The translations under genes and the position numbers were made by a program. A DNA stretch of 64,000 bases from an uncultured Actinomycetes bacterium (GTDB lineage: Bacteria > Actinomycetota > Thermoleophilia > Gaiellales > Gaiellaceae): positions 67,434 through 131,433 of the forward strand of contig CAWHNJ010000022.1 in the NCBI GenBank assembly GCA_963830835.1, read 5' to 3'. How positions within the stretch are numbered: the first letter of the stretch is position 1; each line of letters opens with the position of its first letter. The notes under the pieces are model-generated. The model did not search any database, was not told the DNA's origin, and saw only the letters and a program-made list of their open reading frames with translations. Shown here in pieces: positions 5,013 through 62,455 of this stretch.

Positions 5013-5027
5013 CGTGCTCCTAGTCGC

Positions 5028-6306
5028 GTGAGCGGCGAGTCGCGCACCGACTTCTGGAAGTTCTGGGCGGGCCAGACGATCTCCCAGCTCGGGAGCTCGT
5101 TCACGTTCTTCGCGCTGCCGCTGCTCGTCTACAAACTGACCGGGTCGTCGGTCAATCTCGCCGTCACGACGGCTGCGTACTTCCTCCCCTACCTCCTCTT
5201 CGGGCTCGTCATCGGCGCCTGGGTCGATCGCGTCGACCGCAGGCGGATGATGGTCGCGGTCGATCTCGGCCGCGCGGCGGTGCTCGCCACCATCCCGTTG
5301 CTGTCGTACCTCGATGCACTCTCGGTCGGGTGGATCTACGCGGCGTCGTTCGCGACGGCGACGCTGACGATCGCGTTCGACTCGGGACAGTTCGCCGCCC
5401 TGCCCAACCTCGTCTCCAAGGACGACCTCGTGACGGCGAACGGGCGTCTCCAGGCGAGCTACTCGGCCGCGATGGTGGTCGGCCCGCTCCTCGCCGGTGT
5501 GCTCGTCGCGGTCGTCGACCTGGAGACGGTGTTCCTCGTCGACTCGGCGTCGTTCGTCGCCTCGGCCGTCTCGCTCGGGCTCGTGCGGACGAGCTTCAAC
5601 CCCGACGAGCCTCCCGAGCGGAAGCACATCCTCCGCGACGTCAGCGAGGGGCTCCGCTACGTCCTCGGCCACCCAGTGTTGCGGAACATCTCGCTGATGA
5701 TGGCGCTGATCAACTTCGTCATCGGCGACGACGTTCACGCAGCTCGTCCTCTTCGCATCGGTGGAGCTCGATGCATCGGACACGCAGATCGCGGTGCTGT
5801 TCGCCGCCGGCGCGGCTGGTGTGGTGTGCCTGGGGCTGGCTGCGGGACGACTTCGCAAGCGACTCTCGTTCACCGTTGCCGCGCTCGGGGCGATGATGCT
5901 CGAAGGCCTCCTCGGGATCGCCTTCGGCCTCAACAACGTCTACGCGGTGGCGCTCGTGCTCTGGGCGGCGATGTCCGGGCTCGGCCTGTTCTTCAACATC
6001 AACACGATCAGCCTGCGCCAGCAGATCGTGCCCTCGCACATGCTCGGTCGGGTGGTCTCGATCGCCGGCGTGCTGGCGTGGTCGGCGATCCCGCTCGGCG
6101 CGCTCCTGGGTGGCTGGGCGATCGAGGTAACCGACGACGTCGCCCTCGTGTACGCAGCGATCGGCGGGCTGACCTTCCTGATCGCGCTCGCGTTCCGCTT
6201 CACGGCCCTCGGCCACGCGGACGACTACCTCGAGGCGCCCGACGCCGCCCCGCCCGAGCCCGAGGCGCTCCCGGACCCGGCTGTCGCGACGCGGGGAGGC
6301 GGCTGA
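5028..6306 (+). CDS. MFS transporter (EntS/MFS_3-like), frameshift near 5727
   Basis: ORF 5028.. gives FWKFWAGQTISQLGSSFTFFALPLLVY...GAWVDRVDRRRMM. The C-terminal half is in the ORF 5761..6306 frame (TTFTQLVLFASVELDASDTQIAVLF...). Confidence 0.85.
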
Positions 6307-31232: not shown

Positions 31233-31859
31233 GGTGGCGGCGCTGGCTCGTTCCGGCCTTGGCCGTGCTCTGCGTGCCCGTGGCGGTCGTGCTCGCGCTC
31301 TTCGCCGTCGACGTGCTGCGTGTCGGCGACTCCGTCACCGAGGACGACGTCCGCTTCAAGCAAGGCCAACACTGCAGGCAGGGCTCTTCGACGACCCCGG
31401 TTTCCTGCCCGGTCACATCGCCGCGAAGGCGGTCGGTCTCGAGGACGACCTGCGCTATCGCCGCGCGGTCTGGCTCTATGCCCGCGCCGACCCGAGCAAC
31501 ACGACGGTGTACCTCTCGCCCGCCCAGGAGGCGTTGCGGGCGAGCCTGGAGCCGAAGCTCATCGATGCCAGCCGGGCGGAGACCGATCCCCGACGGCGTT
31601 CGCGGCTGCTCAACCTCTTGGGCATCGTCGCGATGAGCCGCTACGCCGTCGACCCCGGCGACCGCTCCAACACCGTTCGTGCGGCCATCGACTCGTTCAC
31701 GAACGCGATCAACATGGACCCGACCAACGTCGACGCGAAGTTCAACCTCGAGATCGTCCTGCGCGACTTCTTCCACCAGGTCGCGCCCGGCGTCTCCCCG
31801 GACCGCGGCCGGCTGGGCGGGAACGTCGCCGGCGTCGGCCGCGACGGCAGCGGTACTGA
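31229..31859 (+). pseudogene. Membrane-anchored helical protein (occupies the BatC/TPR-like position) with frameshifts near 31370 and 31855
   Basis: MRWRRWLVPALAVLCVPVAVVLALFAV...; second frame LQAGLFDDPGFLPG...AIDSFTNAINMDPTNVDAKFNLEIVLRD (TPR-like). A TGATG junction joins it to the next gene. Confidence 0.5.
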
Positions 31860-32748
31860 TGGACCTGACGTTCCTCACGCCGATGGCGGCGATCTTCGCC
31901 GTGTCGGCGTTGCTGCCGCTCGGCATCTACTGGTTTCGCGAGCGGCGCGCCTCCAAGATCCGGAGTGCGCTCGGGCTGGAAGAGCCGTCGTGGCGCTCCC
32001 GTGCGCCGCTTGTGGCGGCAGTGGCCGCAGTGCCACTGCTGCTCGGAGTCGCGGCCGCACAGCCGGTGCTCGGCACCGAGCGCTCCGTGCCCGAGCGGAC
32101 GGACGCCGAGGCATTCTTCGTCATGGACACGTCGCGCTCGATGCTGGCAGCGGACGGCCCCGAAGCCGCCACACGCTTTGACCGTGCGGTCGAGGTCGCC
32201 TCGGAGATCCACGACCGGATCCCGCAGGTGCGTTCCGGCATCGTGTCGATGACCGACCGCCTACTGCCCCATGCCCTGCCGACCACCGACCGGCGGTGTT
32301 CGAGACGACGCTCCGGCGGTCGATCGGCGTCGAGCTGCCGCCGCCCGCGTTCACCTACTCCACCTATGCGACGTACTACGACATCCTCGCCGGGATCCCG
32401 CAGCGCAAGTTCTTCTCGCCAGCGGCGAAGAAGCGGCTGCTCGTCGTGATGACCGACGGCGAGTCGCGGCCGTTCGGTTCCCAGCTCGGCGCGGCGTTTC
32501 CCGGCAAGCCTCCGATCGAGACCGTCCTCGTCCGCTTCGGGAACGCCGACGAGCGCATCTACACGACGGGCGAGGCAGAGGGCTACGTGCCCGCCAAGAA
32601 CAGCGAGCAGACGATCGCGCGCGTGGCCGACCTGATGGGCGGCCGCGCGTTCTCCGAGGACGACGTGTCCGCGGCCGGCGACGCCGTCGCCGAGATCGTC
32701 GGCGAGGGAGCGACGAACGACAGGAAGATCCCGGGCGCGCGTCGGTAG
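31859..32748 (+). CDS. vWA-domain membrane protein (BatA-like), frameshift near 32290
   Basis: MDLTFLTPMAAIFAVSALLPLGIYWF...AFFVMDTSRSMLA (DxSxS)...; second frame LLVVMTDGESRPF... Confidence 0.75.
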
Positions 32749-32938: not shown

Positions 32939-33702
32939 TCAGTCAGCTCCTTCGCTCTCGGGCTGGCCGACACGGTCGATCGGGAGACCACACAGCCATG
33001 AACGAGAGAGGCCCCGCCCGGGCATCAGACGACGGCGGTAACTCGCGGGGTCCGGCTGCGGCACGATGCGGATGTAGGGCTTCGGCGACTCCCACTCGCC
33101 GAAGATCTCCTTCGCCTCGTCGTTCGAGACCGAGCCGGCGATGATGACGTCCTCGCCGTGCTGCCAGTTGACCGGGGTTGCGACCCGGTGCTTCGCGGTC
33201 AGCTGCAGCGAGTCGATCACGCGCAGCACCTCGTCGAAGTTGCGGCCCGTCGTCATCGGGTAGACGAGGACGAGCTTGACCTTCTTGTCGGGGCCGACGA
33301 CGAAGACGTTGCGCACCGTCTGATTGTCGACCGGCGTGCGGTCTTCGGGTCGCCGGAAGCCTCCGCCGGCAGCATCCCGTAGAGCTTCGAAACCTCGAGG
33401 TCGGGGTCGCCGATGATCGGGTAGTTGGGCGCGTGACCCTGCGTCTCCTCGATGTCGGCGGCCCATCCCGAGTGATCATCGACGCGGTCTGCAGACAGGC
33501 CGATGATCTTCACATCGCGCTTGTCGAACTCGGGCTTGATCCTCGCCATGTAGCCGAGCTCGGTCGTGCAGACGGGCGTGAAGTCCTTGGGATGCGAGAA
33601 CAGCACGGCCCAGGAGTCGCCGATCCAGTCGTGAAAGCTGATCGGCCCCTCGGTCGTCTCAGCCTGGAAATCCGGTGCGGTGTCTCCGATCTTGAGGCTC
33701 AT
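32939..33702 (-). CDS. 1-Cys peroxiredoxin (Prx6 subfamily), frameshift near 33345, C-terminal end uncertain
   Basis: MSLKIGDTAPDFQAETTEGPISFHDWIGDSWAVLFSHPKDFTPVCTTELG...; second frame VRNVFVVGPDKKVKLVLVYPMTTGRNFDEVLRVIDSLQLT...PYIRIVPQP. A strong AAGGAGG SD precedes it. Confidence 0.88.
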
Positions 33703-33746: not shown

Positions 33747-34767
33747 TCATTCCTCAGAGCCACTCCCGCCCGCTCCGGACTCGTCGAGCGCCCGCCAGAG
33801 CCGCTGGCCGCGCGTCTGGCGGCGGAACTCCGTCACCGTCATGCTGGTGAGGCGGGTCGGTGCCGTGGCGCGGGCAGTGGCCGAGCGACGGATGCCGAAC
33901 AGTGGAGCCAGCTCTCCGAAGTAGTTCCCGGGCCCGATAGTCGCAAGCACCTCCTCGGTGCCGTCGGCCCGTTCCCGCACGACCTCGACCGCGCCTTCGT
34001 CGACGACATAGACTCGCTCGCCCGGGTCACCCTGGCGGAAGACGGTGTCACCAGGGGCGAGGCGAGCCTCCCCCGGCTCTCCCGACTCTCCGTCGATCCG
34101 CGGGCTCATGGCCACGACCTTGTCGGCCAGCGGAATCATGCGATCGTCGTGGGTGGCAGACCACGACGATGCGGCCGCTGTCGGCGATGTCCCGCAGGAG
34201 CTCGAGGACGTTCTCCACCTGCATGTAGTCGAGATGCGCCGTGGGCTCGTCCGCGAGGACGAGCGGCGGGTCGTGAGCCAGGGCTCGGGCAATCGCGACC
34301 CGCTGCTGCTGACCACCGGAAAGGTCGCCCGGCCGGTGGTGCCGACGGTCCCCCAGACCGACCTGCTCGAGCAGCCCGTCGGCGCGCTCGCGGGCGGCCG
34401 CGGAGCTGAGACCTGTGGCCCGCAAAGGAACCTGGACGTTCTCGCTCGCGGTCAAGCTCGGAACGAGATTGAACGCCTGGAAGACGACTCCGACGCGGTA
34501 CCTGCGGTACTCGGTCAGCGCAGCGCCCGCGAGCGTCGTGATCTCGACGCCTCCGAGCTGCACGCTGCCTCCGGCAGGCGTGAGGATCGACGCGAGGATC
34601 GACAGCAACGTCGTCTTGCCGCAACCGCTGGCGCCGAGGAGTAGGGCCAGCTGGCCCGAACCGATCTCGAAGTCGAGCCCGTCGATCGGCCGAACGACGT
34701 AGTCGCCGCTTCGATACTCGACGACGAGATCTCGCCCGGCCAGCTGCAGGTCAGCTGCCAAAGGCAA
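33747..34767 (-). CDS. ABC transporter ATP-binding protein (MacB/LolD type) fused to a C-terminal cyclic-nucleotide-binding domain, frameshift near 34160
   Basis: LLGASGCGKTTLL (Walker A), LSGGQQQRVAIARAL, LVLADEPTAHLD, then ATHDDRMIPLADKVV. In the same frame follows FRQGDPGERVYVVDEGAVEVV...GPGNYFGELAPLFGIRRSATARA (cNMP-binding). Confidence 0.8.
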
Positions 34768-35793
34768 GCGCGGGGTCGATCTTGAGGGTACGCCTGAGCG
34801 CAGCGAGGCTCGCGAGGGCTCCGGCGAGGACGGCTACGGCCAGCGAGCTCCACGTACGCACGGGCGGGGACCTCCACCTTCATCGCCGACAGCGGCGCAA
34901 GAGCGAGCTCGAGCACGATGGCGACGGCGACGGCGCACGAGCGTGAGCGCGATGGCCTGACCGACCAGTCCCCGAACGAGGCTGGCAGTGGAGACGCCGA
35001 TCGCCTTGAAGACGGCAAAGTCCGCGGTCCGCTCGAGGGTGGACAGGTAGAGGATGGCGCCGACGATGCCGGCTGCGACCGCCCACAGCAGCCAGCGGAT
35101 GAGCCCGATCGTCTGCTTTGCCTGTGCGACGGGCCGGTTGAGGTCCTCCCCCACATCACTGTTCGTGAGGACGGAGAACCCCTGCGGCGGGGCAGCAACT
35201 TCTCCTTCGGCCACGATTGCCGTCGCGAGCCGCTGGCCGTCGAACCCGAGGCGCTGGACGTCTGGGAGCGCGACGACGACCGCGGGCACGCCGGCGAAGT
35301 ACGTCCGGCCGCTCGTCTCCGCGACCACCTCGAACTCCATGCCGCTGAGCTCGATCGTGTCGCCCACGTCGACGCCGAGCCGATCGTCGACGATCGCAGC
35401 TCCAGGTCGCGTGAGGAGGTCTTCGGCCTCGGCGGCCGGGCCCACGCCACCGGGGACCGCGCCGATGACGTTCACGTTCTCGGGATCCGGCGTGAGCGCG
35501 GTCGCCCCCACGATCGCCACGGGGTCGGCTCTCCGTACGCCGGTGGCACGTCGTACCTCGTCGACGCGAGACGTGGGGAAGCCAATCGGCGCGGTGAACG
35601 GCCCGACGGCTCCTTCAGCCACCAGCCACTGATCGGCGCCGAACGAGGACACGGTCCGGTCGATCTCGTTGTCGAAGCTCGCACGCACACCCGTGAGCAG
35701 CAGTGCCAGCGCGAGCACGAGGCCGGTGGCGAGGACGGCGATCGCAAAGCGCCGCCGTCGCCACTCGAGGTCACGAACACTGATCAGCCACAC
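34751..35793 (-). pseudogene. FtsX-like ABC permease with two frameshifts (near 34950 and 34850)
   Basis: GTG 35793 gives VWLISVRDLEWRRRRFAIAVLATGLVLALALLL...FAVFKAIGVSTASLVRGLVGQAIAL.... The true end VAVLAGALASLAALRRTLKIDPALAFGS-stop is in a third frame. Confidence 0.7.
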
Positions 35794-35877
35794 CGGCGCC
35801 GGAGTATCGACCGGGAGCCCATGACGGTGCAAGTGGCACTTCCAAACGAGGCGTCGCACGGAGTAGGGTCCCTTCGC

Positions 35878-37635
35878 ATGGACCCGCCGACGTCGTTCTT
35901 CTCGGGCATCACCGAGCAGGAGATCGACAGCGCGCTCAACGGCATCGAGCGCAGGCGTCTCTCGAGCGGAACCGTGCTCATCGGCGAAGGAGACATCCCT
36001 GGAGAGATGTACGTCCTCCGCTCCGGTTCGGCGGAGGTCCTCATGGAGGATCGCCTGGGCGTAAAGCAGACGGTCAGCCGCATCGGCCCCGGCGAGACGA
36101 TCGGGGAGATGTCGCTCCTCACCAGAGAGCCTGCCTCGGCGACTGTTCGCATCTCCGAGGCGGCGGAGGTGCTCGTGCTCGACGAGACCGGCCTCGCAGA
36201 GCTCACCGAGCGACTCCCGGGCCTCGAGCGCAACATGTTCAGGATCCTCGCCGCCCGCCTCGTGCGGGCCAACCGCCTGGTGGTCGGCCGCCAGCCGGGC
36301 CGTCTGACCGTGCTCGACGACCGCGAGTCGCCGCCGCTGCTCGGCTACGCCCTCGCGGCGAGCATCGCCTGGCACACCGGGGCTCGAACGCTGTACGTCG
36401 CACTGACCGACGCACCAGCCGAGGCGCTGGCCGCCCTCGCGAGAGCCTCACAGAAGACCGCCGAGTCGGGGGCGCATGGCGCCGAGCTCGTCGTCGCGAG
36501 CCCGGACGGCGAGTTTGCCCCCGAGCGGATCGAGTCGACGCTGCTTCGACTCGCTGCCGAGTACGACGACGTGGTGGTGCAGTTGCCCCGGGGCGCGACG
36601 AGCGGTCCCGTGAACATCAGTCGCACGATCACGCTTGCTTCGACGGAGGCACCGCCACAGGGATTCGCAGTCGAGCTCGCTCCGGACGCCGCCGCACCGT
36701 TCCTGCGGGGGCCGCTCCTGCGCACCCCTCCGCTGTCCGCCGAAGACGAGGCCGCGCTCGAGCATGGGCTGCTGCCGGCAACGACAGGAGCGGGCCGAGC
36801 GCTGGGACGGCTCTCCAGAAGGTTGGTCGGACTGGAAGTCGGTGTCGCCCTGGGGACGGGAAGCGTGCGTGGCTATGCGCACCTCGGCGTGCTGCGCGGG
36901 CTCGAGCGCGCAGGAATCCCCGTCGACTACCTCGCCGGCACGAGCATCGGAGCAGTCGTGGCCGGAGCGTATTCGCTGGGCGACGTGGACACGGCGACGG
37001 ACTTCCTGGACGAGCTGGGCTCGAGGATGTTCAGGCCCACGCTCTCCAAGCGATCGATGCTTTCGACGCGCGCCATGCGCCGCCTCATCCGTAAGCGGTT
37101 CGGCGACCCGCAGCTGGAGAGCTTGCCCATCCCCCTGGCGGTCGTGGCCACCGATATGGAGACCCACGAGGAAGTGGTGCTCAGTCGCGGAAGCACGACC
37201 GCGGCGCTGTTCGCCAGCTCGGCCATCCCCGGCGTCTTCCCCGCCGTCCGCATCGGAGCGCGGACGCTCGTCGACGGCGGCATCGTCAATCCCGTTCCGG
37301 TCAGCGTCGCAGCAGCCCTTGGAGCGGGCGTCGTGATCTCGGTGCGGCTCGTGTCGGGGGGCGGTATCGGCGAGGAAGTGTCGGAGGAGGTCAAGGGCCC
37401 GGTGCCCAATGTCGTTGCCGCCATCGTCAGGTCGATCGAGACGGTGCAGACGCGCATCAAGGCCGAGACGGATTCGGTGCCGGTCGTCGCGCTCACTCCC
37501 GACCTCACGAAGATCGAGCCGGTCAAGCTGCGGAGGTTTCGCGACGGCCGCCGTTTCGTGCCGGCGGGGGAGGCCGCGGTCGAGGACGCCATGCCTCGAC
37601 TGCGAGCCGCCCTGCCGTGGCTCCGCGAAAGCTGA
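35878..37635 (+). CDS. Cyclic-nucleotide-binding domain plus patatin-like phospholipase (NTE-like architecture)
   Basis: N-terminus: GEGDIPGEMYVLRSGSAEVL...GPGETIGEMSLLTREPASATV. C-terminus: VGVALGTGSVRGYAHLGVL...LAGTSIGAVVAG (GxSxG) ...LVDGGIVNPVP (DGG). Intact, 585 aa. Confidence 0.85.
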   Translation: MDPPTSFFSGITEQEIDSALNGIERRRLSSGTVLIGEGDIPGEMYVLRSGSAEVLMEDRLGVKQTVSRIGPGETIGEMSLLTREPASATVRISEAAEVLVLDETGLAELTERLPGLERNMFRILAARLVRANRLVVGRQPGRLTVLDDRESPPLLGYALAASIAWHTGARTLYVALTDAPAEALAALARASQKTAESGAHGAELVVASPDGEFAPERIESTLLRLAAEYDDVVVQLPRGATSGPVNISRTITLASTEAPPQGFAVELAPDAAAPFLRGPLLRTPPLSAEDEAALEHGLLPATTGAGRALGRLSRRLVGLEVGVALGTGSVRGYAHLGVLRGLERAGIPVDYLAGTSIGAVVAGAYSLGDVDTATDFLDELGSRMFRPTLSKRSMLSTRAMRRLIRKRFGDPQLESLPIPLAVVATDMETHEEVVLSRGSTTAALFASSAIPGVFPAVRIGARTLVDGGIVNPVPVSVAAALGAGVVISVRLVSGGGIGEEVSEEVKGPVPNVVAAIVRSIETVQTRIKAETDSVPVVALTPDLTKIEPVKLRRFRDGRRFVPAGEAAVEDAMPRLRAALPWLRES

Positions 37636-37639
37636 CGGC

Positions 37640-39220
37640 TTAGACGAGCCCGCCGCGGTAGCGCCACGGGCCCGGGTCGAGGCGGATGCCGCGCTTGCGG
37701 CAGAGCTCGCGGACGGAGTCGAGCACGATTCCCCCCTTCCCGTGGAGCCTGCGATCAACGAGGTCGAGCACGGCGAAGCCGTCGGGAGGCTCGCCGGCAA
37801 CCTCGAGCGTGAGCACGACAACCTCGCCGTCGGTCTCCGGTGGCTCGAACGTCGTGTCGACCTTCTCGACGAACAGCACGAGCGACGTCGTGTCGTCCGC
37901 TCGAATCGCAATGGAGTGGTCGGAGCCGGCGGCGACGTCGACGCCACGCAGCTCGAGCAACTCGCGGAGATCGTCGAGCATCCGCCGCACGAGCTGCGGC
38001 TGCCGCGCGCGCGGCACCGGGCGCGCTGAGACGCCGACTGGTCTTCGCCGGCACACCGATCGCCAGCTTGCCGCGCGGGGACGTCCGAGACGACGTACGA
38101 GTTCGACGCGACGATGGCCTCCCGGCCGAGCCGGCAGCCCGCATAGACGACGGCGCCGAGCCCGACCTGCGCGCGGTCCTCGAGCACGATCGGCGCGAAC
38201 CGGTTCTCGAAGCCCTCGAGCACCGAATGGCCGATGTTGTGCGTGACGAGCATCGACCGCATCGTCACGAAGACCTCCCGGCCGATGACGACCGGCCGGC
38301 AAGGGTTGATGAACGCCTCGTCGCCGACGAAGACGAGGTCGCCGACAGCGAGCGTCGCCCACGGGTCACGCCAGCCGCCGCCGCCGACCCGCACGTCACG
38401 CCCCAGGTGGCCGTTGGCGCCGATGAAGGCACGGCGGCACTGAATCTCGAGCCGCGGGCCAATGTTCGTGAGAGCGCCCACCGCGAACACCTCCTCGCAG
38501 CGAACCCAACCGTCGTCAGCCGATCTCGACACCGTCTCCAACCACGATCCGCGGCGCGATGAGGATCGTGCCGTCGCCGAGGCGCACGCCGTCGCCGATC
38601 GAGGCGCCGTGGCGCCGGTACGCATCGCAGCGCTCGTCGGACGAAAGCGACCGGAACGTGTCCGGATCCGACCGTAGCGACTCGAGGAAGCCCTCCTCCA
38701 GGCGTCCTTCCTCCTCGGGAAGCTCCAGCACGGCGGGTAGCGTCACGCCTTCGAGTGAGATGCCGTGGAAGAGCCCCGGCACCGTCACGACCTCCTCGGC
38801 CGCGCGGGCAGCGACGAGGCGCTCCACGTCCTCGGCCGTGATGAAGCCGTCCTTCTCGATCGTCGCCAGGTCGATGCCGTGCTCCTCGGCCAGCTCGACG
38901 GCCCTCCGCGTCGCGTTCGCGGGCCCGGCCGGCTGCACCGACGGGGCCTTCGCCGGGCGAGACTCCTCGGCTGCGGCGAGCTCTTCCTCGCTCTCGGCGA
39001 TCACGGCGATGCGGCCGCCCAGCTCGACCTCGTCACCCTCGCCGTAGAGGTGGTGGAGGATCCCGTCACCCGGCGCTTCGAGCTCGAGCAGCGCCTTCGA
39101 GGTCTCGACGAGGCAGACGACCTGCCCCTTCTGCACCCGGTCGCGGTCCGGCACGAGCCACTCGACGAGCAGCGCCCACTCGGTGTTCGCGTCTTCGCGG
39201 GTGAGAACGAGCTCGAGCAG
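37640..39220 (-). pseudogene. Hybrid E2-like protein: lipoyl-type domain, E3/peripheral-subunit-binding domain, hexapeptide-repeat (LbH) acyltransferase and an unknown C-terminal domain. About 3 frameshifts; non-canonical (CTG?) start.
   Basis: ELVLTREDANTEWALLVEWLVPDRDRVQKGQVVCLVETSKALLELEAPGDGIL (lipoyl fold). ATRRAVELAEEHGIDLATIEKDGFITAEDVERLV (PSBD). ASIGDGVRLGDGTILIAPRIVVGDGVEIG / WVRCEEVFAVGALTNIGP...IGANGHLGRDVRVGGGGW...LEDRAQVGLGAVVYAGCRLGREAIVASNSYVVSDVP (LbH). Frames change near 38520, 38085 and 38030. Confidence 0.6.
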
Positions 39221-39223
39221 CCG

Positions 39224-40245
39224 TCAGCTCCTGACGATCCCGAGCGCCCGCACCGCGCTGACGACGTCGTCGACGCCCGGCAGCACCGCCTCCTCGAGCG
39301 TGGGCGCCGCGGGGATGATGCCGTCCCGCGCCGCGATCCGCTCCACGGGCCGCCGCAGGTCCTCCCACGCCTCGCTCTGCACGCGGGCCGCGATCTCGGC
39401 GCCGACGCCGCCGGTCAGCGTCCCCTCCTCGACCGTGACGAGCGAGCCCGTGCGGGCGACGGACTCCAGCACCGGCTCCAGATCGAGCGGCAGCAGCCGG
39501 CTCAGGCAGACCACCTCGGTGAACAGCTCGTCCTCGATGATCAGCCGTACCGCCGCCTCGAGCACGATCGGCAGCATCCCTCCGTACGTGACGATCGTCG
39601 TCTCGCCGCCGGCGAAGCCGTTGCCCGAGAAGGAGAGCGCCGGATACGGACCCGTCGGTCTCCCGGCAGGCGAGATCGCCGAGCCGCCCGTCCACCGGCC
39701 TGCGGTTCGGCCGTCCGTACATGAGCTTGTTCTCGATGAAGAAGACGGGATCGTCGTCGTCGATCGCCGCGTGCAGCAGCGCGCCGATGTCGTGGCACTC
39801 GCTGGGCGCGACGACCTTGATGCCCGGGCACGCCGAGCAGCACCTTCTCGAGCGTCTGGCTGTGCGTCGGGCCGTAGCCGCGCCGCCCGCCCATCGGCGT
39901 GCGGATGACGAGCGGCACGCGCACCTGGTCGTCGAACATCGCGCGGAACTTCGCGATCCCGTTGACGGTCTGGTCGAAGCCGAGCGCGATGAAGTCGCCG
40001 AACATGATCTCGAGGATCGGCCGCCAGCCGCGCAGCGCCATGCCGGCGGCGACGCCGAAGATCGCGCCCTCCGAGACGGGCGTCGTGATCACCCGCTGCG
40101 GCCACGTCGACGAGAGGCCCTGCGTGACCTTGAACGCGCCGCCGTACGGGTCGAGCACGTCCTCGCCGAGCAGGTAGACGTCGTCGCGGCTCTCGAAGGC
40201 CTCGGTCAGCGCCGAGTTGAGGACCGTGGCGCAGCGCTCTTCCAC
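39224..40245 (-). pseudogene. 2-oxoacid dehydrogenase E1 beta subunit (set 1) with about two frameshifts (near 39835 and 39650)
   Basis: VEERCATVLNSALTEAFESRDDVYLLGEDVLDPYGGAFKVTQGL...TPVSEGAIFGVAAGMAL...RTPMGGRRGYGPTHSQ / IKVVAPSECHDIGALLHAAIDDDDPVFFIENKLMY / TIVTYGGMLPIVLEAA... Confidence 0.8.
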
Positions 40246-40246
40246 G

Positions 40247-41151
40247 TCAGCCCGCCTCGGGCATGGCCGGCGGAGACGCGTCGGCTGTCGGCGATCGCCT
40301 CGGTCAGCCGGCGCTCGCATCGCGTCCTCGATCGACGTCCGCTGCTCGTCCGGCAGCCGCGCGCCCGCGATGCCGAGCGGATCGCGCTGCGCGCGCTGCC
40401 TCGATCTCCGCCGGGTCGCGGTTGTCGTCGCCCTTCGAGTGCGGGCTGTAGCGGTACGTGTTGAGCACGAGGAAGAACGGCCGCCCGCTCGCGCGCACCT
40501 TGGGCACGATCTCGGCGGCCGCGTCCCGGATCTCGGCCACGTCGGTCGTGTCCAGCTCCGCCGTCTCGATCCCGAAGGCTGCGCCGCGGTCCGCGATACC
40601 GCCCGCGAGCGTCAGGTGGCTGGGCGTCGACTGCGCGTAGAAGTTGTTCTCGACGACGACGAGCAGCGGCAGACCCCAGCGCGAGGCGATGTTGAGGCTC
40701 TCGTAGACGACGCCCTGGCCGAGCGTGCCGTCGCCGATGAAGGCGGTGGTCACCGCGCCGCTCCCGCGCTCCCGCTCGGCGAGCGCCATGCCGGTCGCGA
40801 CCGGCATCGTGCTCCCGAGCACGCCGTTCGAGTAGAAGCCGCCGTTAGCAGAGGTGCTGGCTGCCGCCCTTGCCGCCGCAGACGCCGCTCTGCGCGCCCC
40901 ATCACCTCGCCGCAGCAGCCCGTCCACGTCGTCGGTGAACGCGAGGTAGTGGCCGTGGCAGCGGTGGTTCGAGACGATCGACGTCGCGCCCCGGCTCGGA
41001 GGTGGTCGATCACGCCGACGGCGTTCGCCTCCTGGCCGATGTACGTGTGCGTCGTGCCGGCGAGCTTGCCGAGCGAGAAGAGCTCGAGCAGGCTCTCCTC
41101 GAAGCGACGGATGAGGTACATCCGCTCGTACAGGCGGGCGAGATCGGCCAT
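40247..41151 (-). pseudogene. TPP-dependent 2-oxoacid dehydrogenase E1 alpha subunit (set 1) with at least four frameshifts
   Basis: MADLARLYERMYLIRRFEESLLELFSLGKLAGTTHTYIGQEANAVGV / IVSNHRCHGHYLA / NGGFYSNGVLGSTMPVATGMAL...AFIGDGTLGQGVVYESLNIASRWGLPLLVVVENNFYAQ (TPP motif). The C-terminus is scrambled over three frames. Confidence 0.75.
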
Positions 41152-41218
41152 CGCTTGATCTTCGCTCAGCGTCTGGGGTTTGCCTGCCACGACTCGCGAG
41201 ACGGTACCCGAAGGACAA

Positions 41219-42414
41219 CTACAGGTAACCCGAGATCGGACAGGCGCTGCTCGACGAGCGCCTCCTCCTCGGCGCTGAGGCACCGCCGCGACACGCTCTC
41301 GAGCTCGTCGTACAGCCGCTCACGCACGTCGCCGGGCACGTCGTCCGGCACGGCTCTCGAGCTCGCGCGGATCGACGTCGAGCCGGTACGCCTGCTCCTC
41401 GCCCGGACTGGACCTGGACCGTCAGCTTCCACGGCGGCATGCCGCAGCGCGAGCTGCGACACGGCGCCCTTGTCGGTGCCCACGATCAAGCGCCGGGCGG
41501 TCGCCCTGCTCCGTGCCGTCGGCGAGCGGGAGCAGCGACGTCCCGTCGAGCCCGTCGATCGGTGCGTCCGCCAGCTCGAGCAGCGTCGGCATGAGGTCGA
41601 CGAGGCTCACCTGCGAGGGGACGGCAGCGGGCTCCAGCCGCCCCGGCGCGGAGACGATGAGCGGCACGCGCACGATCTCGTCGTAGAGGTCGGCGCCGTG
41701 CATGTGGTACGTGCCCTTGACCTGCGTCTTGTCCTCGTAGCGCTCGCCCCACGACTCGCCGTGGTCGGAGACGAACGCGACGGCCGTCGTCTCGCGCAGC
41801 CCGAGATCGTCGAGCGCCTGGAGAAAGCCTGCGAAGTGCGTCTCCGACTCGCGCTCCACCGACTGCCGGTAGCTCTCGCGCAGCGCCTCGAGCGCGGCGG
41901 GATCGCCCGACTGGATGCCGGCGATGATGTCCTCCTTCGCCTGGCGCCACTCCTTGCGCTCGGAGTGGAGCACGCCGTACGGCATGTGCGTCGTCCAGCT
42001 GTGGAACCACAGGCAGAACGGCCTCGAGCCGCGCTCGCGCAGCCACTCGACCACGCCGTCGAGCCGCTCGCTCGTCCCCGCGACGTTCGCCTCCGGAAAG
42101 TCGCGGAACAGATACCGCTCGTCGAAGACGAAGCTCCCCGTCTCGTAGCCGTAGGCCGCGGCAACCGTGAACAGCGTCGGCTGCGCGACGTCGAGCTCGG
42201 CGTCCCAGTGCAGGTACCCGTGATGATGCGGGTAGAGGCCGGTGATCATCGACGCGGTCGACGGGGCAGTCCACGGCGCTGCGCTGATTGCCTGGTCGAA
42301 GCGAACGCCGCCCGCGGCGAGCTCGTCGATGGTCGGCGTGGCGACCCGCCCTGCTCCGTAGCAGCCGACGTGGTCGAGGCGTAGCGCGTCGGCGACCCAG
42401 ACGACGAGGTTCAT
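41219..42414 (-). pseudogene. Sulfatase-like hydrolase/transferase (alkaline phosphatase superfamily) with several C-terminal frameshifts
   Basis: MNLVVWVADALRLDHVGCYG...AISAAPWTAPSTASMITGLYPHHHG...AFVSDHGESWGE...PLIVSAPG.... The C-terminal 90 aa are spread over three frames and end LSDLGYL-stop. Confidence 0.7.
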
Positions 42415-43787
42415 GCGGCCAGCTGCGCGGCGAGGCTGCGGCCGCGCATGTCCGATGGGATGTCCAGGCCGAGCAGGTCGAGCACGGTCGGGGCGACGTC
42501 CAGCAGGTGCGCGTCCAGCCGGCCGCGGGCGTCGACACCAGCGCCTGCGGCGACGATCATCCCGTCCTGGGCGTGGTTCGCGTCGTCCGGGCCCGTGTCG
42601 TTCTCGAGCGTGTGCACGCCCTCGTCCCCGCCGATCGTCGCCACCGAGCGCCACAGCAGGTCGCCGAAGATGACGATGAGGTCGGGCGCGACCCCGTTCA
42701 CCTCGGCGTAGAGCTCCTCTGGCCGGTAGACACGCGTCTCCATCGGTCGCCCCTGGTCGTCAGGGATCGCCGCCAGCCGCTCAGCAAGGTCGTCCCGCAC
42801 ACGCTCGTAGTCCTCGGGCGGGACGACGCCCGCCGGCTCTCGACCCTGGACGTTGAGGAAGATCCGCGCGTAGTAGCCGCCGTCGCCCCAGGCCGTCGTG
42901 CTCGACCAGTCGATGCCGACCTCGTGCGGCAGACAGACGCCGTTCGGCTCCGCTTCGAGGGCGAGCAGCCCTTCCCGCCGCAGCCACTCGTTGACGCGGA
43001 TGCCGCCGTCGAGGCGCTTCGCGCCGTGGTCGGAGACGACGAGCACGAGCGTCTCCTCGTCCGCGTGCCCGAGCAGGCGGCCGACGAGGCCGTCCACGTG
43101 CTTGTAGTAGTCGAGGATCGCGGTCTCGAACTCGTTGCCCGGCTCGTGCTTGCGGTGCTCGGCATCCATGAACTTCCAGAAGCCGTGATGGATGCGGTCA
43201 TGGCCCATCTCGACCATCGTGAACAGCTTCCACGGCCGCGTCGCGAGCAGGTGCTCGGCGAGCTGGAAGCGTCGGTCGGTCATCTCGTAGAGCTGCTCGA
43301 GCAGCCATGCCTTGTTCTCCGTGCGGAAGTCCTTGACATCGAAGACGTACTCGCCCACGACCTCCGCCACCTCGTCCTTGAGGCCGGGCGGGTACGTGTA
43401 CGTGCTCTCGACCGACGGCGTGAGAAAGCACGTGACGAGCGCGCCCCGCAGAGGCCGCGGCGGATACGTCCCCGGCACGCCGAGCACGATCGACGAGCCG
43501 CCGGCTCTCCCCACGAGGTCCCACAGCCGCGGCGCCTTGATGGCGCTGCCGTCGGCGATGAACCTCCCGTCGTAGGTGTGGTCCGAGCGGTTGCGAAACC
43601 CGTAGACGCCGAGATCGCCCGGGGTGCGGCTCGCCATCATGCAGGACCACGCCGGGACGGTGATCGGCGGCACGACCGACGTCAGGCGGCCGTGCACGCC
43701 GCGATCCATCAGCGCGGACAGCGTCGGCAGCTCGTCCCGCCATGCCTCGACGAGGGACGGCTCGGCGCTGTCCAGGCCGATCACCAT
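42411..43787 (-). CDS. Type I phosphodiesterase/nucleotide pyrophosphatase family protein (alkaline phosphatase superfamily)
   Basis: MVIGLDSAEPSLV...VVPPITVPAWSCMMASRTPGDLGVYGF...LVVSDHGA...NDTGPDDANHA. Intact. ATGA overlap with the sulfatase-like gene. Confidence 0.8.
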   Translation of the reverse strand: MVIGLDSAEPSLVEAWRDELPTLSALMDRGVHGRLTSVVPPITVPAWSCMMASRTPGDLGVYGFRNRSDHTYDGRFIADGSAIKAPRLWDLVGRAGGSSIVLGVPGTYPPRPLRGALVTCFLTPSVESTYTYPPGLKDEVAEVVGEYVFDVKDFRTENKAWLLEQLYEMTDRRFQLAEHLLATRPWKLFTMVEMGHDRIHHGFWKFMDAEHRKHEPGNEFETAILDYYKHVDGLVGRLLGHADEETLVLVVSDHGAKRLDGGIRVNEWLRREGLLALEAEPNGVCLPHEVGIDWSSTTAWGDGGYYARIFLNVQGREPAGVVPPEDYERVRDDLAERLAAIPDDQGRPMETRVYRPEELYAEVNGVAPDLIVIFGDLLWRSVATIGGDEGVHTLENDTGPDDANHAQDGMIVAAGAGVDARGRLDAHLLDVAPTVLDLLGLDIPSDMRGRSLAAQLAA

Positions 43788-43810
43788 CGCCTTCTGTACC
43801 CGGGCCTGGG

Positions 43811-43841
43811 CCACGGGCGCCCATGATAGATCGGCGCCCGT
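43811..43841. terminator. Perfect 10-bp inverted repeat CACGGGCGCC-N11-GGCGCCCGTG between the FAD oxidase stop and the phosphodiesterase start
   Basis: Read directly from the sequence. There is no U-tract, so it could be either a terminator or an operator. Confidence 0.35.
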
Positions 43842-58323: not shown

Positions 58324-59520
58324 TTATTCGGCGACGAGGGCAGCGGGGCTCTCGAGCAGCTCCCGGAGCCGCTCGAGGAAGCGCGCGGCCTCGGCGCCGT
58401 AGACGACGCGATGATCGCAGGAGAGCGTTACGTCCATCGACCGTCGCGCGACGATGGCTCCGTCCTCGGCGACGAACGGGCGCGGCGCGACGTCGCCGAC
58501 CGCGAGCAGGGCAACCTGCGGGGGATTGATCACGGCGTGGAAGCGGCGGACGCCGAACATGCCGAGGTTCGACACCGTGAACGTGCCGTCGGCGAGGTCG
58601 GCCGGTGCGAGACGGCGTTCCCGCGCTGCTTCCGCGAGGCGTCGCGACTCGGCCGCGATGGACAGGAGGGGCTTGCGGTCCGCGTCGTGGATCGTCGGCA
58701 CGAGGAGCGCGTCGGGCGCGTCGACGGCGACACCGATGTTGATGCGGTCGTGCTGAATCGACTTCCCCGGCTCGTAGGACGCGTTCAGGGCAGGGAAGTC
58801 CCGGAGCGCGAGCGCCGCAGCACGGACGACGAGATCGTTGAAGGACGGCACCGGCGCACGTCCTGCGTCCCGGAGCTCGTCACGAAGCGTCGCCGCGGCT
58901 TCCATCGCGATCTCGACCTCGAGCGTGAACTCCGGAATGGACGATCGCGACTCGGCCATCCGCTCTGCGATCCTGCGTTGCGTCGGGCTCTGCTCGACAA
59001 CGATCGGCGCGCCACGGCCGTCGCCGTCCGCGGCCGCTTCCGCCTCTCCGCCGCCCGCGGCGGCCTCGACGTCCGAGACCACGATGCGACCGCCCGGACC
59101 GGTGCCGTCGATCTCGTCCAACGCGACGTTCAGCTGATCAGCGAGCTTGCGCGCGACCGGCGTCGCCCGTGCGCGTCCCGTGCGCGGAGCCGGACGCGAC
59201 TTCGCAGGTTCCGGCGCGCGTTCTGTTCGATCCGCCGGCTTCGGCGCGGGAGCCGCCGCCCGGCTCTGCGCGGCAGCGTCCGGCCGGATGCGTGCGATGA
59301 GGGCGCCGAGCTCGGCGGTCTCACCGTCCGCGACGACGATCTCCTCGAGGGTGCCGTCCACCTCGGCCTCGTAGACGACCGTCGCCTTGTCCGTCTCGAC
59401 CTCGACCAGCGGCTCGCCTCGGGCGAAGCGCTCCCCCGGCTCCTTCAGCCACGTGAGAATCGTCGCCTCCTCCATGGAGTCGGAAAGCCGCGGCATTCCG
59501 ATGTCGACGACGTCGCCCAC
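58324..59520 (-). CDS. Dihydrolipoamide acyltransferase E2 (set 2)
   Basis: DIGMPRLSDSMEEATILTWLKEPGERFARGEPLVEVETDKATVVYEA (lipoyl), ATPVARKLADQLNVALDEIDGTGPGGRIVVSDVE (PSBD), SNLGMFGV...LSCDHRVVYGAEAARFL (catalytic). Confidence 0.9.
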   Translation of the reverse strand: MGDVVDIGMPRLSDSMEEATILTWLKEPGERFARGEPLVEVETDKATVVYEAEVDGTLEEIVVADGETAELGALIARIRPDAAAQSRAAAPAPKPADRTERAPEPAKSRPAPRTGRARATPVARKLADQLNVALDEIDGTGPGGRIVVSDVEAAAGGGEAEAAADGDGRGAPIVVEQSPTQRRIAERMAESRSSIPEFTLEVEIAMEAAATLRDELRDAGRAPVPSFNDLVVRAAALALRDFPALNASYEPGKSIQHDRINIGVAVDAPDALLVPTIHDADRKPLLSIAAESRRLAEAARERRLAPADLADGTFTVSNLGMFGVRRFHAVINPPQVALLAVGDVAPRPFVAEDGAIVARRSMDVTLSCDHRVVYGAEAARFLERLRELLESPAALVAE

Positions 59521-59525
59521 GAGCG

Positions 59526-60171
59526 CTACAACTGACGACCGAGAACGATCCAGACGGCCGTCACAGCCTCGCTGCCGTCGTTGTGCAGCCGGTGAGGCAC
59601 GGAGGACTCGAAGCACACGGAGTCGCCCGGCCCGAGCACGTACTCCTCGAAGCCGAGCGTCACGGTGAGCTCTCCTTCCCGGACGAAGCCGAGCTCCTTC
59701 CCGTTGTGCCGCACGAGCGCATCGGCCGGGGCCGACTCGCTCCCCGGTGGGTACACGACGTAGAGGAACTCGACACCCGGCACGTCGCGCGTCGTCAGGC
59801 GCTCCCAGCGAACGCCGGTCTCCAGGTCGATGCCGCGTGCGCTCGTTCGCTCGCTGGACGAAGCGGTTGCCGTCCTCTTCGGCGGAGCTCCAGCCGTCCT
59901 CCACGGCGGTCGCCGCCGCCTCTCCGTTGTCCGAAGGTGGGGCCTCGTCGGGCTCCACGTGGTGAAACACCTCGTCCATCGACACCCCGAGCTCGCTCAC
60001 GACCGCATAGAGCGTCCGCACGGACGGCTGGATCCGTCCCGTCTCGATCTGCGAGAGGAGGCTCGGCGAGACGTCGAGCCTGCGGGCCAGAGCACGGAGG
60101 CTGAGCCCGCGCTCGAGGCGTGTCCGGCGAAGGTTCTCCCCCAGCGGGGCTAGAGGCCGGGTCGCGCTCAC
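59526..60171 (-). CDS. XRE-HTH plus cupin transcriptional regulator (copy 2) embedded between E1 alpha and E2, frameshift near 59835
   Basis: LGENLRRTRLERGLSLRALARRLDVSPSLLSQIETGRIQPSVRTLYAVVSELG... / IDLETGVRWERLT...FLYVVYPPGSES...HNGKELGFVREGELTVTLGFEEYVLGPGDSVCFESSVPHRL. Confidence 0.8.
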
Positions 60172-61148
60172 GACCCGACCTCCGTTGCGAACTCGCGTCG
60201 GTCGTATGGCTCGGGGAAGGGCGCGTCGAGGGCTGCTTGCTCGATCCCGTCGAGGGCTCGCTCGACCTCGTCCCGGATCGCAGCGACGTCGGCCTCCTCG
60301 AGCCCATACTCGTCGCGGAGCCGCTCGGCCGCGACGGCGAGCGGATCGCGCTGCTTCCAGCGGTCGAGCTCCCCCTCGGGACGGTACTTGCCGGGATCGC
60401 TACGCGAGTGGCCGACGAAGCGGTACGTCGCGGCCTCCACGAACTGAGGCCCGCTTCCGCCTCGGGCCTTCTCGACGACCTCTGCCGCGACAGCGCGAAC
60501 GGCCCAGACGTCCATGCCGTCGACTGCCGACGTGGGAATCTCGAGCGCGGCCGCCCGGGGCTGGATCCCTCCCGGCGTCACCGCCTCCGTGGGCGTGTAC
60601 TCGCCGTAGCGGTTGTTCTCGCAGACGAAGACGACCGGCAACGCGAAGACCTTCGCGAAGTTGAGGCACTCGAAGAAGTAGCCGTGGTTCGCGGTGCCGT
60701 CTCCGAAGTACGCGACCGCGACATGCCCCGTGCCGCGAAGTGCGAGTGCCGCTCCGGTGGCTGCCGCCATGCTGCCGCCCACGATCCCGTAGCAGCCCAT
60801 GACGCCATGGTCCGGATCGACGACGTTCATCGAACCGGCGAGCCCGCCGTTCACGCCCGAGGCGCGCCCGAGCAGCTCGGCGAGCAGCTCCGTCGGGTCG
60901 GTGCCCATGGCGAGGAGATGTCCATGCCCGCGGTAGGTGCACGCGACACGGTCGCCGTCGCCGAGCACGCTCGCGAAACCGACGGCGACCGCCTCTTGGC
61001 CGGAGTACAGATGCGTCGTGCCGTACACCTCGCCCCGCAGGAAGAGGCTCTGGACGCGTTCCTCGAAGCCGCGGATGAGCAGCATGCGGCGGTAGAGGTC
61101 CGCCGCCAGGCCGGCTTCGACTGCAGCGGTCGCGGCCTTGGTCGCCAT
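60168..61148 (-). CDS. TPP-dependent 2-oxoacid dehydrogenase E1 alpha subunit (set 2)
   Basis: LYRRMLLIRGFEERVQSLFLRGEVYGTTHLYSGQEAVAVG...YFGDGTANHGYFFECLNFAKVFALPVVFVCENNRYGE. Intact. Confidence 0.93.
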   Translation of the reverse strand: MATKAATAAVEAGLAADLYRRMLLIRGFEERVQSLFLRGEVYGTTHLYSGQEAVAVGFASVLGDGDRVACTYRGHGHLLAMGTDPTELLAELLGRASGVNGGLAGSMNVVDPDHGVMGCYGIVGGSMAAATGAALALRGTGHVAVAYFGDGTANHGYFFECLNFAKVFALPVVFVCENNRYGEYTPTEAVTPGGIQPRAAALEIPTSAVDGMDVWAVRAVAAEVVEKARGGSGPQFVEAATYRFVGHSRSDPGKYRPEGELDRWKQRDPLAVAAERLRDEYGLEEADVAAIRDEVERALDGIEQAALDAPFPEPYDRREFATEVGS

Positions 61149-61153
61149 CGCGT

Positions 61154-62455
61154 CTAGGAGACTTCGAGCGGGTCCTTCGCGACGCGGCCGTCGACGACGT
61201 CGACGCCGCGGACGTACGTCTTGCCTGTCACGAGCAGCTCGTCGGCCGGGAAGCGCGTGATCACGTCGCAGCCATCGGCCGTGACGACGACCTCTTCCTC
61301 GATGCGAGCGGCCGACCGGCCGTCGCTCGCCGGACAGTACGTCTCGAGGGCAAACACCATCCCGGCCTCGAGCTCGGCCGGCGCGTCCATCGAGTGCAGC
61401 CGCGAGATCATCGGGAACTCGTAGAGCCCGACGCCCAGCCCGTGGCCGAACTGCAGGCCGAACGCGGCTCGCTCGTCCTGCATGCCGATCTCCTCCGCGG
61501 TGGGCCACGCCTCGGCGATCTCGTCCGTCGTCGCGCCGGGCCTGACGAGCTCGATCGCCGCGTCGAGCCACTCCCGGCAGCGCTTGTAGGCATCGATCTG
61601 GGACGGCGTCGCGTAGCCGACGTTGAACGTGCGGTAGTAGCACGTCCGGTAACCCATGAAGGAGTGGATGATGTCGAAGAACGCCTGGTCCCCCGGCCTG
61701 ATCAACCGGTCCGAGAAGGTGTGCGGATGGGGGTTGCAGCGGTCACCGGAGATTGCGTTGATCGCCTCCACGTGCTCGGAGCCGAGCTCGAACAGGAGCC
61801 TCATGGCCGCCGCGACCACCTCGCTCTCCTTCACGCCCGGACGCAGCATCCGGTAGATCTCCTCGTAGACCGCGTCGACGATTCCCGCGGCGTGGTCGAG
61901 CAGGGCGAGCTCGTCCTCCGTCTTGATCTTCCTGGCCTCGAGCATCACCGGCTGCGAGTCGACAAGGTGGAGCCCGGCGCGCTGGAGCGCGAGGAGCGTC
62001 GTCATGTCGGGCACGTCCACGCCGAGGGGCTCGCCCGCCAAGCCGCGCTCTGAGAGCTCGTGGTGGACCATGGACGCGAGCGCGTCCGGTACGCCCGTCT
62101 CGTCGGGCATCGCCCCGCGCATCGGCGAGACCCAGGCCTGCCAGCTCGACTCGGGAAGCCAGGGGCAATAGAGCTTGTGATGGCGCGCCGCCGAGCCGAA
62201 GTCCCAGAGCACCGGGTCCTCCTCGCGGAACACGAGCGCGAAGCGGATGTTCTTGTCACGCTCCCAGGTGCCGATCGCGGTGCTCGTGACGTAACGCAGG
62301 TTGTTGGGGTCGAACAGCAGCAGCGCCCCCAGCTCGGAAGCTGCGAGCTGGGCCTTCGTCTTCTCCAGGCGCACCGCACGCAGACGCGCGAAGTCGACAC
62401 GCTGCTCCCAGTCGACCGCCATTGTCGCGCCGCGCGAAGCGATGGTCATCATCAT
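61154..62455 (-). CDS. M24-family metallohydrolase (creatinase / Xaa-Pro peptidase / ectoine-hydrolase-like)
   Basis: Creatinase-like N-terminal domain plus pita-bread fold: RPGDQAFFDIIHSFMGYRTCYYRTF...FGHGLGVGLYEFP...GMVFALETY...IEEEVVVT. Intact, 433 aa. Confidence 0.85.
   Translation of the reverse strand: MMMTIASRGATMAVDWEQRVDFARLRAVRLEKTKAQLAASELGALLLFDPNNLRYVTSTAIGTWERDKNIRFALVFREEDPVLWDFGSAARHHKLYCPWLPESSWQAWVSPMRGAMPDETGVPDALASMVHHELSERGLAGEPLGVDVPDMTTLLALQRAGLHLVDSQPVMLEARKIKTEDELALLDHAAGIVDAVYEEIYRMLRPGVKESEVVAAAMRLLFELGSEHVEAINAISGDRCNPHPHTFSDRLIRPGDQAFFDIIHSFMGYRTCYYRTFNVGYATPSQIDAYKRCREWLDAAIELVRPGATTDEIAEAWPTAEEIGMQDERAAFGLQFGHGLGVGLYEFPMISRLHSMDAPAELEAGMVFALETYCPASDGRSAARIEEEVVVTADGCDVITRFPADELLVTGKTYVRGVDVVDGRVAKDPLEVS

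Follow-up and report, generated by a model that had tools for sequence, protein, structure and literature searches.

The dihydrolipoyl acyltransferases (E2s) of the pyruvate, 2-oxoglutarate and branched-chain dehydrogenase complexes carry a lipoyl lysine in a beta-turn, a flexible Ala/Pro linker, a peripheral-subunit-binding domain (PSBD) and a C-terminal, trimer-forming catalytic module, and their genes stand right after those for the alpha and beta subunits of E1, their thiamine diphosphate (ThDP)-dependent partner; to our knowledge, the acyl group ends on coenzyme A (CoA) in every 2-oxoacid and acetoin complex. Here we analyse a gene that follows this plan up to its catalytic core, at positions 37640-39220 (minus strand) of a 64,000-nucleotide stretch of DNA from an uncultured bacterium of the Gaiellaceae (assembly GCA_963830835.1, contig CAWHNJ010000022.1; ~70% G+C), which we call the window. 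Its product, the fusion protein, begins like an E2, but in place of the 2-oxoacid_dh domain with its chloramphenicol acetyltransferase (CAT) fold it has a left-handed beta-helix (LbH) acyltransferase domain followed by a new C-terminal domain. It further departs from E2s in the shortened PSBD loop of the Gaiellales clade, in having no linked gene for E3 (the dihydrolipoyl dehydrogenase, Lpd), and possibly in passing its acyl group to something other than CoA. Lacking a CAT-fold core, it falls outside the E2s as they are defined.

The nearest conceptual precedent is AcoC (PRK14875 / NF011457), in which a lipoyl/PSBD head likewise sits on a non-CAT catalytic fold and works with E1 alpha and beta. 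The core of AcoC has an alpha/beta-hydrolase fold, unlike the LbH of the fusion protein, and it hands acetyl to CoA; in the window protein the match to PRK14875 takes in just the first 130 residues, against model positions 10-129 of 372, and no abhydrolase family is among the Pfam matches of the protein stitched together from its reading frames. Another relevant system makes the glycolyl units of tetrahydroisoquinoline and scleric-acid biosynthesis (QncN/QncL/QncM and SclQ1-4), where an E1-like ThDP enzyme loads a lipoyl domain and, in QncN/QncL/QncM, the lipoyl-borne acyl group goes to a non-CoA acceptor, an acyl carrier protein (ACP; PMC6335953). QncL, unlike the fusion protein, retains the canonical E2 acyltransferase domain and is served by a dedicated ACP acceptor; among the genes listed for those fusion loci that were retrieved by protein look-up, none has a PP-binding or ACP product. 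A 2018 eLife paper counted five characterised lipoate-dependent complexes before adding LbpA/sHdr (PMC6067878).

We regard the locus as a lipoate system of the E1/E2 type whose catalytic core has been displaced, and see a substantial chance that its mechanism is new. The family keeps the E1/lipoyl/PSBD machinery and exchanges the catalytic core for an unrelated fold, in at least four phylum-level groups besides Gaiellales. Databases give it only generic names ('biotin/lipoyl-containing protein', 'E3 binding domain-containing protein', 'acetyltransferase-like isoleucine patch superfamily enzyme'), and full-text literature searches found no description of a lipoyl-LbH fusion; an earlier note on this DNA, made from the sequence alone, had allowed that the fusion might already be a named family, and no source we found gives it a functional name.

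A single gene behind three inserted bases

The bounds of the gene are set by its upstream neighbour and by its own start and stop. The E1 beta gene ends at a TGA (39226-39224, minus strand), and the fusion frame opens three bases further on, at a probable CTG start (39218-39220) with an AGGAG motif 7 nt upstream; it ends at a TAA (37642-37640), in agreement with the interval given in the earlier note. The four closest relatives compared (L004, L005, L021 and L067) also start with CTG, locus L042 has an ATG where the window gene has its CTG, and the residues read from the CTG, LLELVLTREDAN, agree with the conserved N-terminus of the family. Gene callers place the starts of orthologues about 22-25 codons too late, for example in P0001-P0008.

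As sequenced, this frame is broken. The open reading frame (ORF) from 39154 stops at 38516, at a TGA (38518-38516) that is present because the first inserted base itself makes it; coding then runs on in a second frame to about 38073 and in a short third frame, and returns to the first from about 38040. Taken at face value, this would suit a decayed pseudogene, or two genes, that is, a short lipoyl/PSBD protein ending at the TGA at 38518 and a separate acetyltransferase. When the gene was aligned with its four nearest relatives among the genomes, at 82% DNA identity, all three breaks proved to be +1 insertions absent from all four, T at 38518, C at 38073 and C at 38040, lying within the LbH domain or just beyond it; the earlier note had put them near 38520, 38085 and 38030. 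Deleting the three bases yields an ORF of 525 aa that is 93.8% identical over 504 residues to an intact metagenomic protein, P0001 (504 aa), and mends an annotation that otherwise splits or loses the gene.

These breaks belong to a larger cluster, which the earlier note, treating them as a matter for resequencing, had overlooked, as it had the selection on the gene. Compared with three close relatives, the operon carries 17 single-base +1 insertions between 41491 and 38039 (3.45 kb), about one per 200 nt, which affect the genes for a sulfatase-like protein, E1 alpha, E1 beta and the fusion protein and of which none falls within a homopolymer run; the adjoining PF01663 gene (42417-43814) has zero. 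Seventeen insertions without other decay are unlike a pseudogene. When intact proteins of locus L001 were searched against the window with tblastn, the sulfatase-like, E1 alpha, E1 beta, fusion, peroxiredoxin and VWA genes were each found split over two or three frames, in pieces that are still 72-98% identical to their orthologues. Since the VWA-domain and peroxiredoxin genes (31859-32742 and 33050-33702), each in two frames against intact L001 orthologues, are broken too, indel errors reach beyond the operon. That all 17 operon events are insertions is odd even for long-read error.

The repaired gene has dN/dS ratios (nonsynonymous to synonymous substitution) against L021 of 0.18, 0.12 and 0.15 in its three segments; judged by these values, it is under purifying selection, including downstream of the breaks. 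Many of the relatives are 'MFD' metagenome-assembled genomes (MAGs), and where their sequence is intact, gene calling yields the fusion as one ORF of 480-550 aa. We therefore reject the pseudogene or two-gene reading, to which we give very little credence: the insertions are absent from relatives and form part of an operon-wide cluster, amino-acid identity to orthologues remains 78-98%, with 93.8% to P0001 after repair, and dN/dS stays at 0.12-0.18 past the breaks. The three insertions are most likely errors of assembly or polishing, not gene decay, and 39220-37640 on the minus strand is one real, conserved gene.

Domain anatomy and conserved residues of the fusion protein

The E2-like head, hexapeptide-repeat core and new C-terminal domain that the earlier note read from the sequence are borne out by Pfam, by a family profile built from 67 sequences and by AlphaFold2 (AF2) models; the model of a homologue that is 62% identical, P0077, contains all the modules described below plus disordered linkers, with a predicted local distance difference test (pLDDT) score of 83. 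The lipoyl domain spans residues 2-77 (38990..39217; PF00364, Biotin_lipoyl, E 5e-10) and has the motif VETSKA, in which the predicted lipoyl-lysine is K42 (codon 39097-39095); the lysine aligned with it in P0077, also K42, is placed by the model in a turn between strands 34-39 and 44-48. This lysine is invariant in alignments of 22 and of 67 sequences. We considered a biotinyl domain instead and rejected it: the motif reads ET[ST]KA instead of EAMKM, the domain is followed by a PSBD and the gene preceded by an E1 pair, and the best profile matches are E2 lipoyl domains.

A Glu/Ala/Pro linker, evident on direct reading of the sequence, occupies residues 78-102 and leads to the PSBD (residues 103-138, 38807..38914; ATRRAVELAEEHGIDLATIEKDGFITAEDVERLVAA), which binds E3 or E1 in known complexes and was assigned with the family profile, the Pfam E3_binding match being sub-threshold. 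The loop of this domain is shorter in the Gaiellales clade than in canonical PSBDs; divergent members of the family have a PSBD of canonical length, for example ASPAARRLAREKGVELKDVTGTGPRGEVTIRDV, with a precomputed PF02817 match. Positions 2-144 of the family profile align without a break to both the lipoyl domain and the PSBD in pyruvate dehydrogenase (PDH) E2 chains of solved structure (E 2e-44).

The second half of the protein is of a different kind. A helical cap before the beta-helix (residues 174-206, 38603..38701; FLESLRSDPDTFRSLSSDERCDAYRRHGA) carries a motif conserved across the family and corresponds to helices 164-204 of the P0077 model (pLDDT >90). It is followed by the LbH acyltransferase domain (residues 207-392, 38043..38602; PF00132, Hexapep, E 3e-6), with His327 (codon 38241-38239) and a GGGGxRDPWA loop. 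Family profile positions 262-385 align to the acetyltransferases VCA0836, SACOL2570, LacA (GAT) and Maa (MAT), with PDB entries 3ect, 1kqa and 1ocx, and a Foldseek search with the P0077 model returned VCA0836, NeuO, MAT and GAT, all acetyl-CoA-dependent LbH acetyltransferases, as well as LpxA and E2 lipoyl/PSBD models. The best partial NCBIfam match of the domain is to the WcaF family, and the curated cutoffs of the named LbH acetyltransferase families are all missed by a wide margin (NF007797, WcaF, 68 versus 192 bits; TIGR04008, WcaF, 39 versus 326; Maa, 31 versus 314; LacA, 31 versus 347). The fusion protein shares with enzymes of the MAT/GAT/WcaF/NeuO type (LacA, Maa, VCA0836, WcaF) the LbH fold, the position of the catalytic His, a C-terminal 'GVPAK' and the N-terminal helical cap; those enzymes, in contrast, have about 180-220 aa, stand alone and depend on acetyl-CoA, and to their plan the fusion protein adds N-terminal coils, the GGGGxRDPWA loop, a 125-aa C-terminal domain and a lipoyl carrier.

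A Thr-His pair in the beta-helix is invariant across the 67 sequences, which are 27-84% identical to P0077. BLASTP aligned P0077 His328, the counterpart of window His327, with His115 of E. coli LacA, the general base of that enzyme. Within the Gaiellales clade the His motif THNIGHSVLEGFENRFAP, the GGGGxRDPWA loop and a C-terminal REFCRKRGIRFxPGPWRY are near-invariant.

The C-terminal alpha/beta domain (about 125 aa; residues 397-525, 37643..38029), which ends in VRELCRKRGIRLDPGPWRYRGGLV, appears specific to this family. An AF2 model from the window's own sequence was confident (pLDDT 91.5, predicted template-modelling score 0.86), and Foldseek found no fold match for it in the PDB (best E 0.16, TM <= 0.35); weak partial matches to Holliday-junction resolvases and alike (E >= 0.16) were treated as noise. 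By sequence it had no PDB match, and no Pfam match at E <= 1 except one of 17 residues to RCC1_2, which was too weak and was likewise set aside as noise.

The stitched protein has no match to 2-oxoacid_dh (PF00198, the CAT-fold domain with DHRxxDG) at E <= 1, which upholds the absence reported in the earlier note. The canonical E2 that it had used as an internal control, at 58327-59520 within an ORF at 58327-60171 of the same window, is found by the same means to carry Biotin_lipoyl, E3_binding (E 4e-13) and 2-oxoacid_dh (E 4e-75) domains, with the motif CDHRVVYG.

Distribution and possible routes of acyl transfer

A word-indexed search returned at least 999 relatives, the top tier of which consists of intact single proteins of 500-530 aa, and a pattern scan of GTDB species representatives found at least 158 genomes that carry the fusion; the best 80 of these 158 are all Gaiellales, Gaiellaceae or Thermoleophilia MAGs. 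Gaiellales MAGs come mainly from soil metagenomes. In an exhaustive profile search of 1.84 billion cluster representatives, 252 matched at E <= 1e-30, many of them full-length at 25-35% identity, which puts the family at no fewer than 252 clusters at 50% identity. With one divergent member as the query, a further search extended it to MAGs of Ca. Saganbacteria, Ca. Binatia, Deltaproteobacteria and Planctomycetes; all carriers found are MAGs. The domain order is retained over 25-100% sequence identity, and the occurrence of the same architecture as one intact ORF in hundreds of proteins means that it is not due to chance. The earlier note had proposed looking for this domain order in other genomes, and did not foresee how widespread it would prove, in species genomes of GTDB and in other phyla.

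The E1 linkage is equally persistent. Neighbours were counted with tblastn in the Gaiellales loci: in 79 of 80 the gene immediately before the fusion gene is E1 beta, and E1 alpha stands upstream in 77 of 78, the same position after an E1 pair that the earlier note described in the window. Outside Gaiellales, E1 alpha and beta are adjacent in all six distant loci inspected, as a fused E1 alpha-beta in the Planctomycetes MAG. In that MAG (L086, 7874-9979) the fused E1 is one protein of 701 aa before the fusion gene, and the flanking proteins of 326 aa and 274 aa have no Pfam match. L011 (5211-9500) is the only locus in which the PF01663 and sulfatase-like genes directly precede the fusion gene and no E1 alpha or beta is detectable over its 17.5 kb; MAG MFD10007.bin.2.119 has two copies of the whole module on different contigs (L014, L020).

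The accessory genes differ by clade. In Gaiellales, 72 of 74 loci have the sulfatase-like gene (PF00884) upstream of E1 alpha, and 56 of 71 have a PF01663 enzyme no more than 8 kb upstream. Outside Gaiellales, a PIG-L family N-deacetylase adjoins the module in five of the six loci, and in Saganbacteria the order is NeuB, E1 alpha, E1 beta, fusion, PIG-L, NeuC-like, DegT, dehydratase and hexapeptide transferase, with cytidylyltransferases nearby.

What might such a module do? The invariant lysine, the PSBD and the pairing with E1 together suggest that E1 loads a functional lipoyl arm in the N-terminal half, the presence of an invariant catalytic His suggests that the beta-helix is an active acyltransferase, and the retention of the lipoyl-LbH fusion across several phyla suggests that the arm feeds the transferase. 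We tentatively propose that the fusion protein is the carrier-plus-transferase subunit of a three-protein, lipoate-dependent acyl-transfer module with E1 alpha and E1 beta, whose acceptor is likely not CoA. The ThDP-dependent E1, most like that of pyruvate dehydrogenase, would decarboxylate a 2-oxo acid or cleave a 2-hydroxyketone and reductively acylate the lipoyl group predicted on Lys42, while the PSBD would keep E1, a shared E3 or both near the arm. The arm would bring its acyl thioester to the catalytic site of the beta-helix trimer, where His327 would serve as the general base; the acyl group would move to the acceptor, and E3 would re-oxidise the dihydrolipoyl arm. The acceptor would most likely be a hydroxyl or amino group of a sugar-like metabolite made ready by a co-operonic hydrolase: the Thr-type sulfatase-like and PF01663 enzymes in Gaiellales, and in other phyla the PIG-L N-deacetylase.

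Transfer to a non-CoA acceptor is plausible, and the sugar-acetyltransferase type of the LbH domain counts in its favour. The gene context favours a sugar-like acceptor: the PIG-L genes, the nonulosonic-acid cluster of Saganbacteria, the sulfatase-like partner, and a stand-alone relative of the LbH and C-terminal domains linked to a GT4 glycosyltransferase (P0329, below). Lipoate would then bypass CoA, the acyl group being made by E1 and put directly on a sugar, amine or other metabolite by the fused LbH domain, an outcome to which we give a little less than an even chance. If true, it would be a new coupling of 2-oxo-acid oxidation to group transfer, with lipoate as a biosynthetic acyl donor, as ACP is for LpxA and LpxD. 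LpxC followed by LpxD (and LpxA) is indeed alike in that an N-deacetylase precedes an LbH acyltransferase fed by a protein-bound thioester arm; that carrier is ACP-phosphopantetheine and not lipoyl-lysine, however, and LpxC is unrelated to PIG-L, so that the analogy is functional only.

Several observations weigh against this proposal. No E3 gene was found linked to the module: where Gaiellales loci have a Pyr_redox gene downstream, as some do, it is of the Pyr_redox_3 / FMO-like kind and is not Lpd; the window protein by itself scores 21.4 bits (E 2.9e-4) against the 23.7-bit cutoff of E3_binding. The module E1 subunits form two subgroups that, by pairwise similarity, do not split cleanly from canonical E1, the E1 beta of non-Gaiellales modules being equally close to the window's canonical E1 beta and to the Gaiellales module E1 beta. 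Entry of the lipoyl arm into the LbH active site is putative. Because the accessory genes differ by clade (sulfatase-like versus PIG-L), one shared acceptor is unlikely. Nor is the C-terminal domain an adaptor peculiar to lipoyl arms, since LbH proteins that stand alone and lack an E1 have it too. The LbH subfamily, finally, is normally acetyl-CoA-dependent, so a CoA site may persist and the product could be acyl-CoA; parsimony and precedent favour CoA as the acceptor.

These last points lead to a second explanation, in which the module is an ordinary 2-oxoacid or acetoin-type complex with a non-homologous E2: an LbH trimer would have displaced the CAT-fold core, with the lipoyl arm in the sugar-acceptor site of the MAT/GAT fold and CoA in its usual groove, and the product would still be acyl-CoA. 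This needs the fewest evolutionary changes. As far as we know, every characterised E2, AcoC included, delivers its acyl group to CoA, and PRK14875 is the third-best NCBIfam match of the N-terminal part; the nearest solved LbH relatives all bind acetyl-CoA, and LbH enzymes resemble E2 cores in forming trimers whose active sites lie between subunits. A swap between the CAT fold and LbH is also known from the type A and type B chloramphenicol acetyltransferases, and CatB and XAT are among the profile matches; if acyl-CoA is still made, the fusion would be a clean non-homologous displacement parallel to that pair. The explanation leaves the association with PIG-L or sulfatase-like genes and the placement in a nonulosonic-acid cluster unaccounted for, however, gives the extra C-terminal domain no role, and has to reckon with a canonical E1/E2 set already encoded in the same window. 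We consider it rather unlikely, if the strongest in precedent.

Direct acylation of a metabolite from the arm also has to be set against readings in which the arm does not feed the LbH domain. P0329 (371 aa) is a stand-alone LbH plus C-terminal domain (hhalign probability 93%) beside a GT4 glycosyltransferase and without E1, and proteins of this type imply that the transferase-C-terminal unit predates the fusion or exists apart from it. Such a unit can act without a lipoyl domain or E1, presumably with acyl-CoA, and the LbH domain of the fusion protein might accordingly be a conventional acyl-CoA-dependent acetyltransferase, the lipoyl-PSBD part being a tether for E1 or E3, a regulatory or redox-sensing element, or the recipient of reverse acylation from acyl-CoA. 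The lipoyl lysine is invariant, however, the co-linearity with E1 alpha and beta is near-absolute over at least five phylum-level groups, and a domain order held at 25-100% identity is hard to explain without substrate channelling; we think this reading improbable.

Still less probable, in our view, is that the beta-helix is a mere trimerisation scaffold for three lipoyl-PSBD arms, from which another enzyme or hydrolysis would take off the acyl group. LbH domains exist only as trimers, certain proteins with this fold have no catalytic role or a different one (gamma-carbonic anhydrases are among the matches), and a PlsC-type acyltransferase (PF01553) that could serve as the second enzyme is adjacent in three distant loci. 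Against this, the His aligned with the LacA catalytic base is invariant and its motif very strongly conserved, and no second acyltransferase conserved in the Gaiellales operon was seen.

Other genes of the operon and the window

In the window the fusion gene belongs to a minus-strand operon. E1 beta (39224..40245; Transket_pyr plus Transketolase_C) is split over three frames, and tblastn with the L001 E1 beta recovers it in three pieces that are 92-98% identical. E1 alpha (40247..41190; E1_dh), which includes AFIGDGTLGQGVVYESLNIASRWGLPLLVVVENN, is frame-broken by several of the insertions, and its ThDP motif GDG-x25-ENN is intact. The nearest NCBIfam models of the module E1 are those for PDH E1 alpha and E1 beta, both matched below cutoff.

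The conserved fourth operon gene of Gaiellales (41220..42414, end approximate, minus strand) encodes the sulfatase-like protein (PF00884) of the alkaline-phosphatase superfamily. It has T-A-P-S-T (near 42282) in place of the formylglycine motif C-x-P-x-R of sulfatases, so formylglycine cannot form. Phospho-transferases and phospho-hydrolases of this superfamily use a Thr nucleophile, and the protein is probably a Thr-nucleophile phospho- or sulfo-ester enzyme rather than a true sulfatase. A frequent fifth gene, intact in the window (42411..43823, ends approximate, minus strand), encodes the PF01663 protein of the type I phosphodiesterase/NPP family (E 2.9e-48).

Two further kinds of neighbour were seen in relatives. 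In four Gaiellales loci (L006, L007, L008 and L016; about 9567-11012 in L016) the gene immediately after the fusion gene encodes an arylsulfotransferase (ASST, PF14269), and L001 has a Sulfotransfer_4 gene (4584-5279) upstream of the operon, a hint that the Gaiellales version may be concerned with sulfate esters.

Downstream of the fusion gene in the window, the interval between it and the peroxiredoxin gene (34048-37635) holds an ABC ATPase, a permease-like ORF and a cyclic-nucleotide-binding/patatin-like phospholipase; since peroxiredoxin directly follows the fusion gene in L001 and L021, these genes are a lineage-specific insertion. At the canonical locus (58324-61643) an XRE-type HTH_3 domain upstream runs on in frame into the E2 ORF by way of a stretch rich in Arg that seems to be out of frame, and the join is probably another indel; the apparent order there, E1 alpha, HTH, E2, E1 beta, is unusual.

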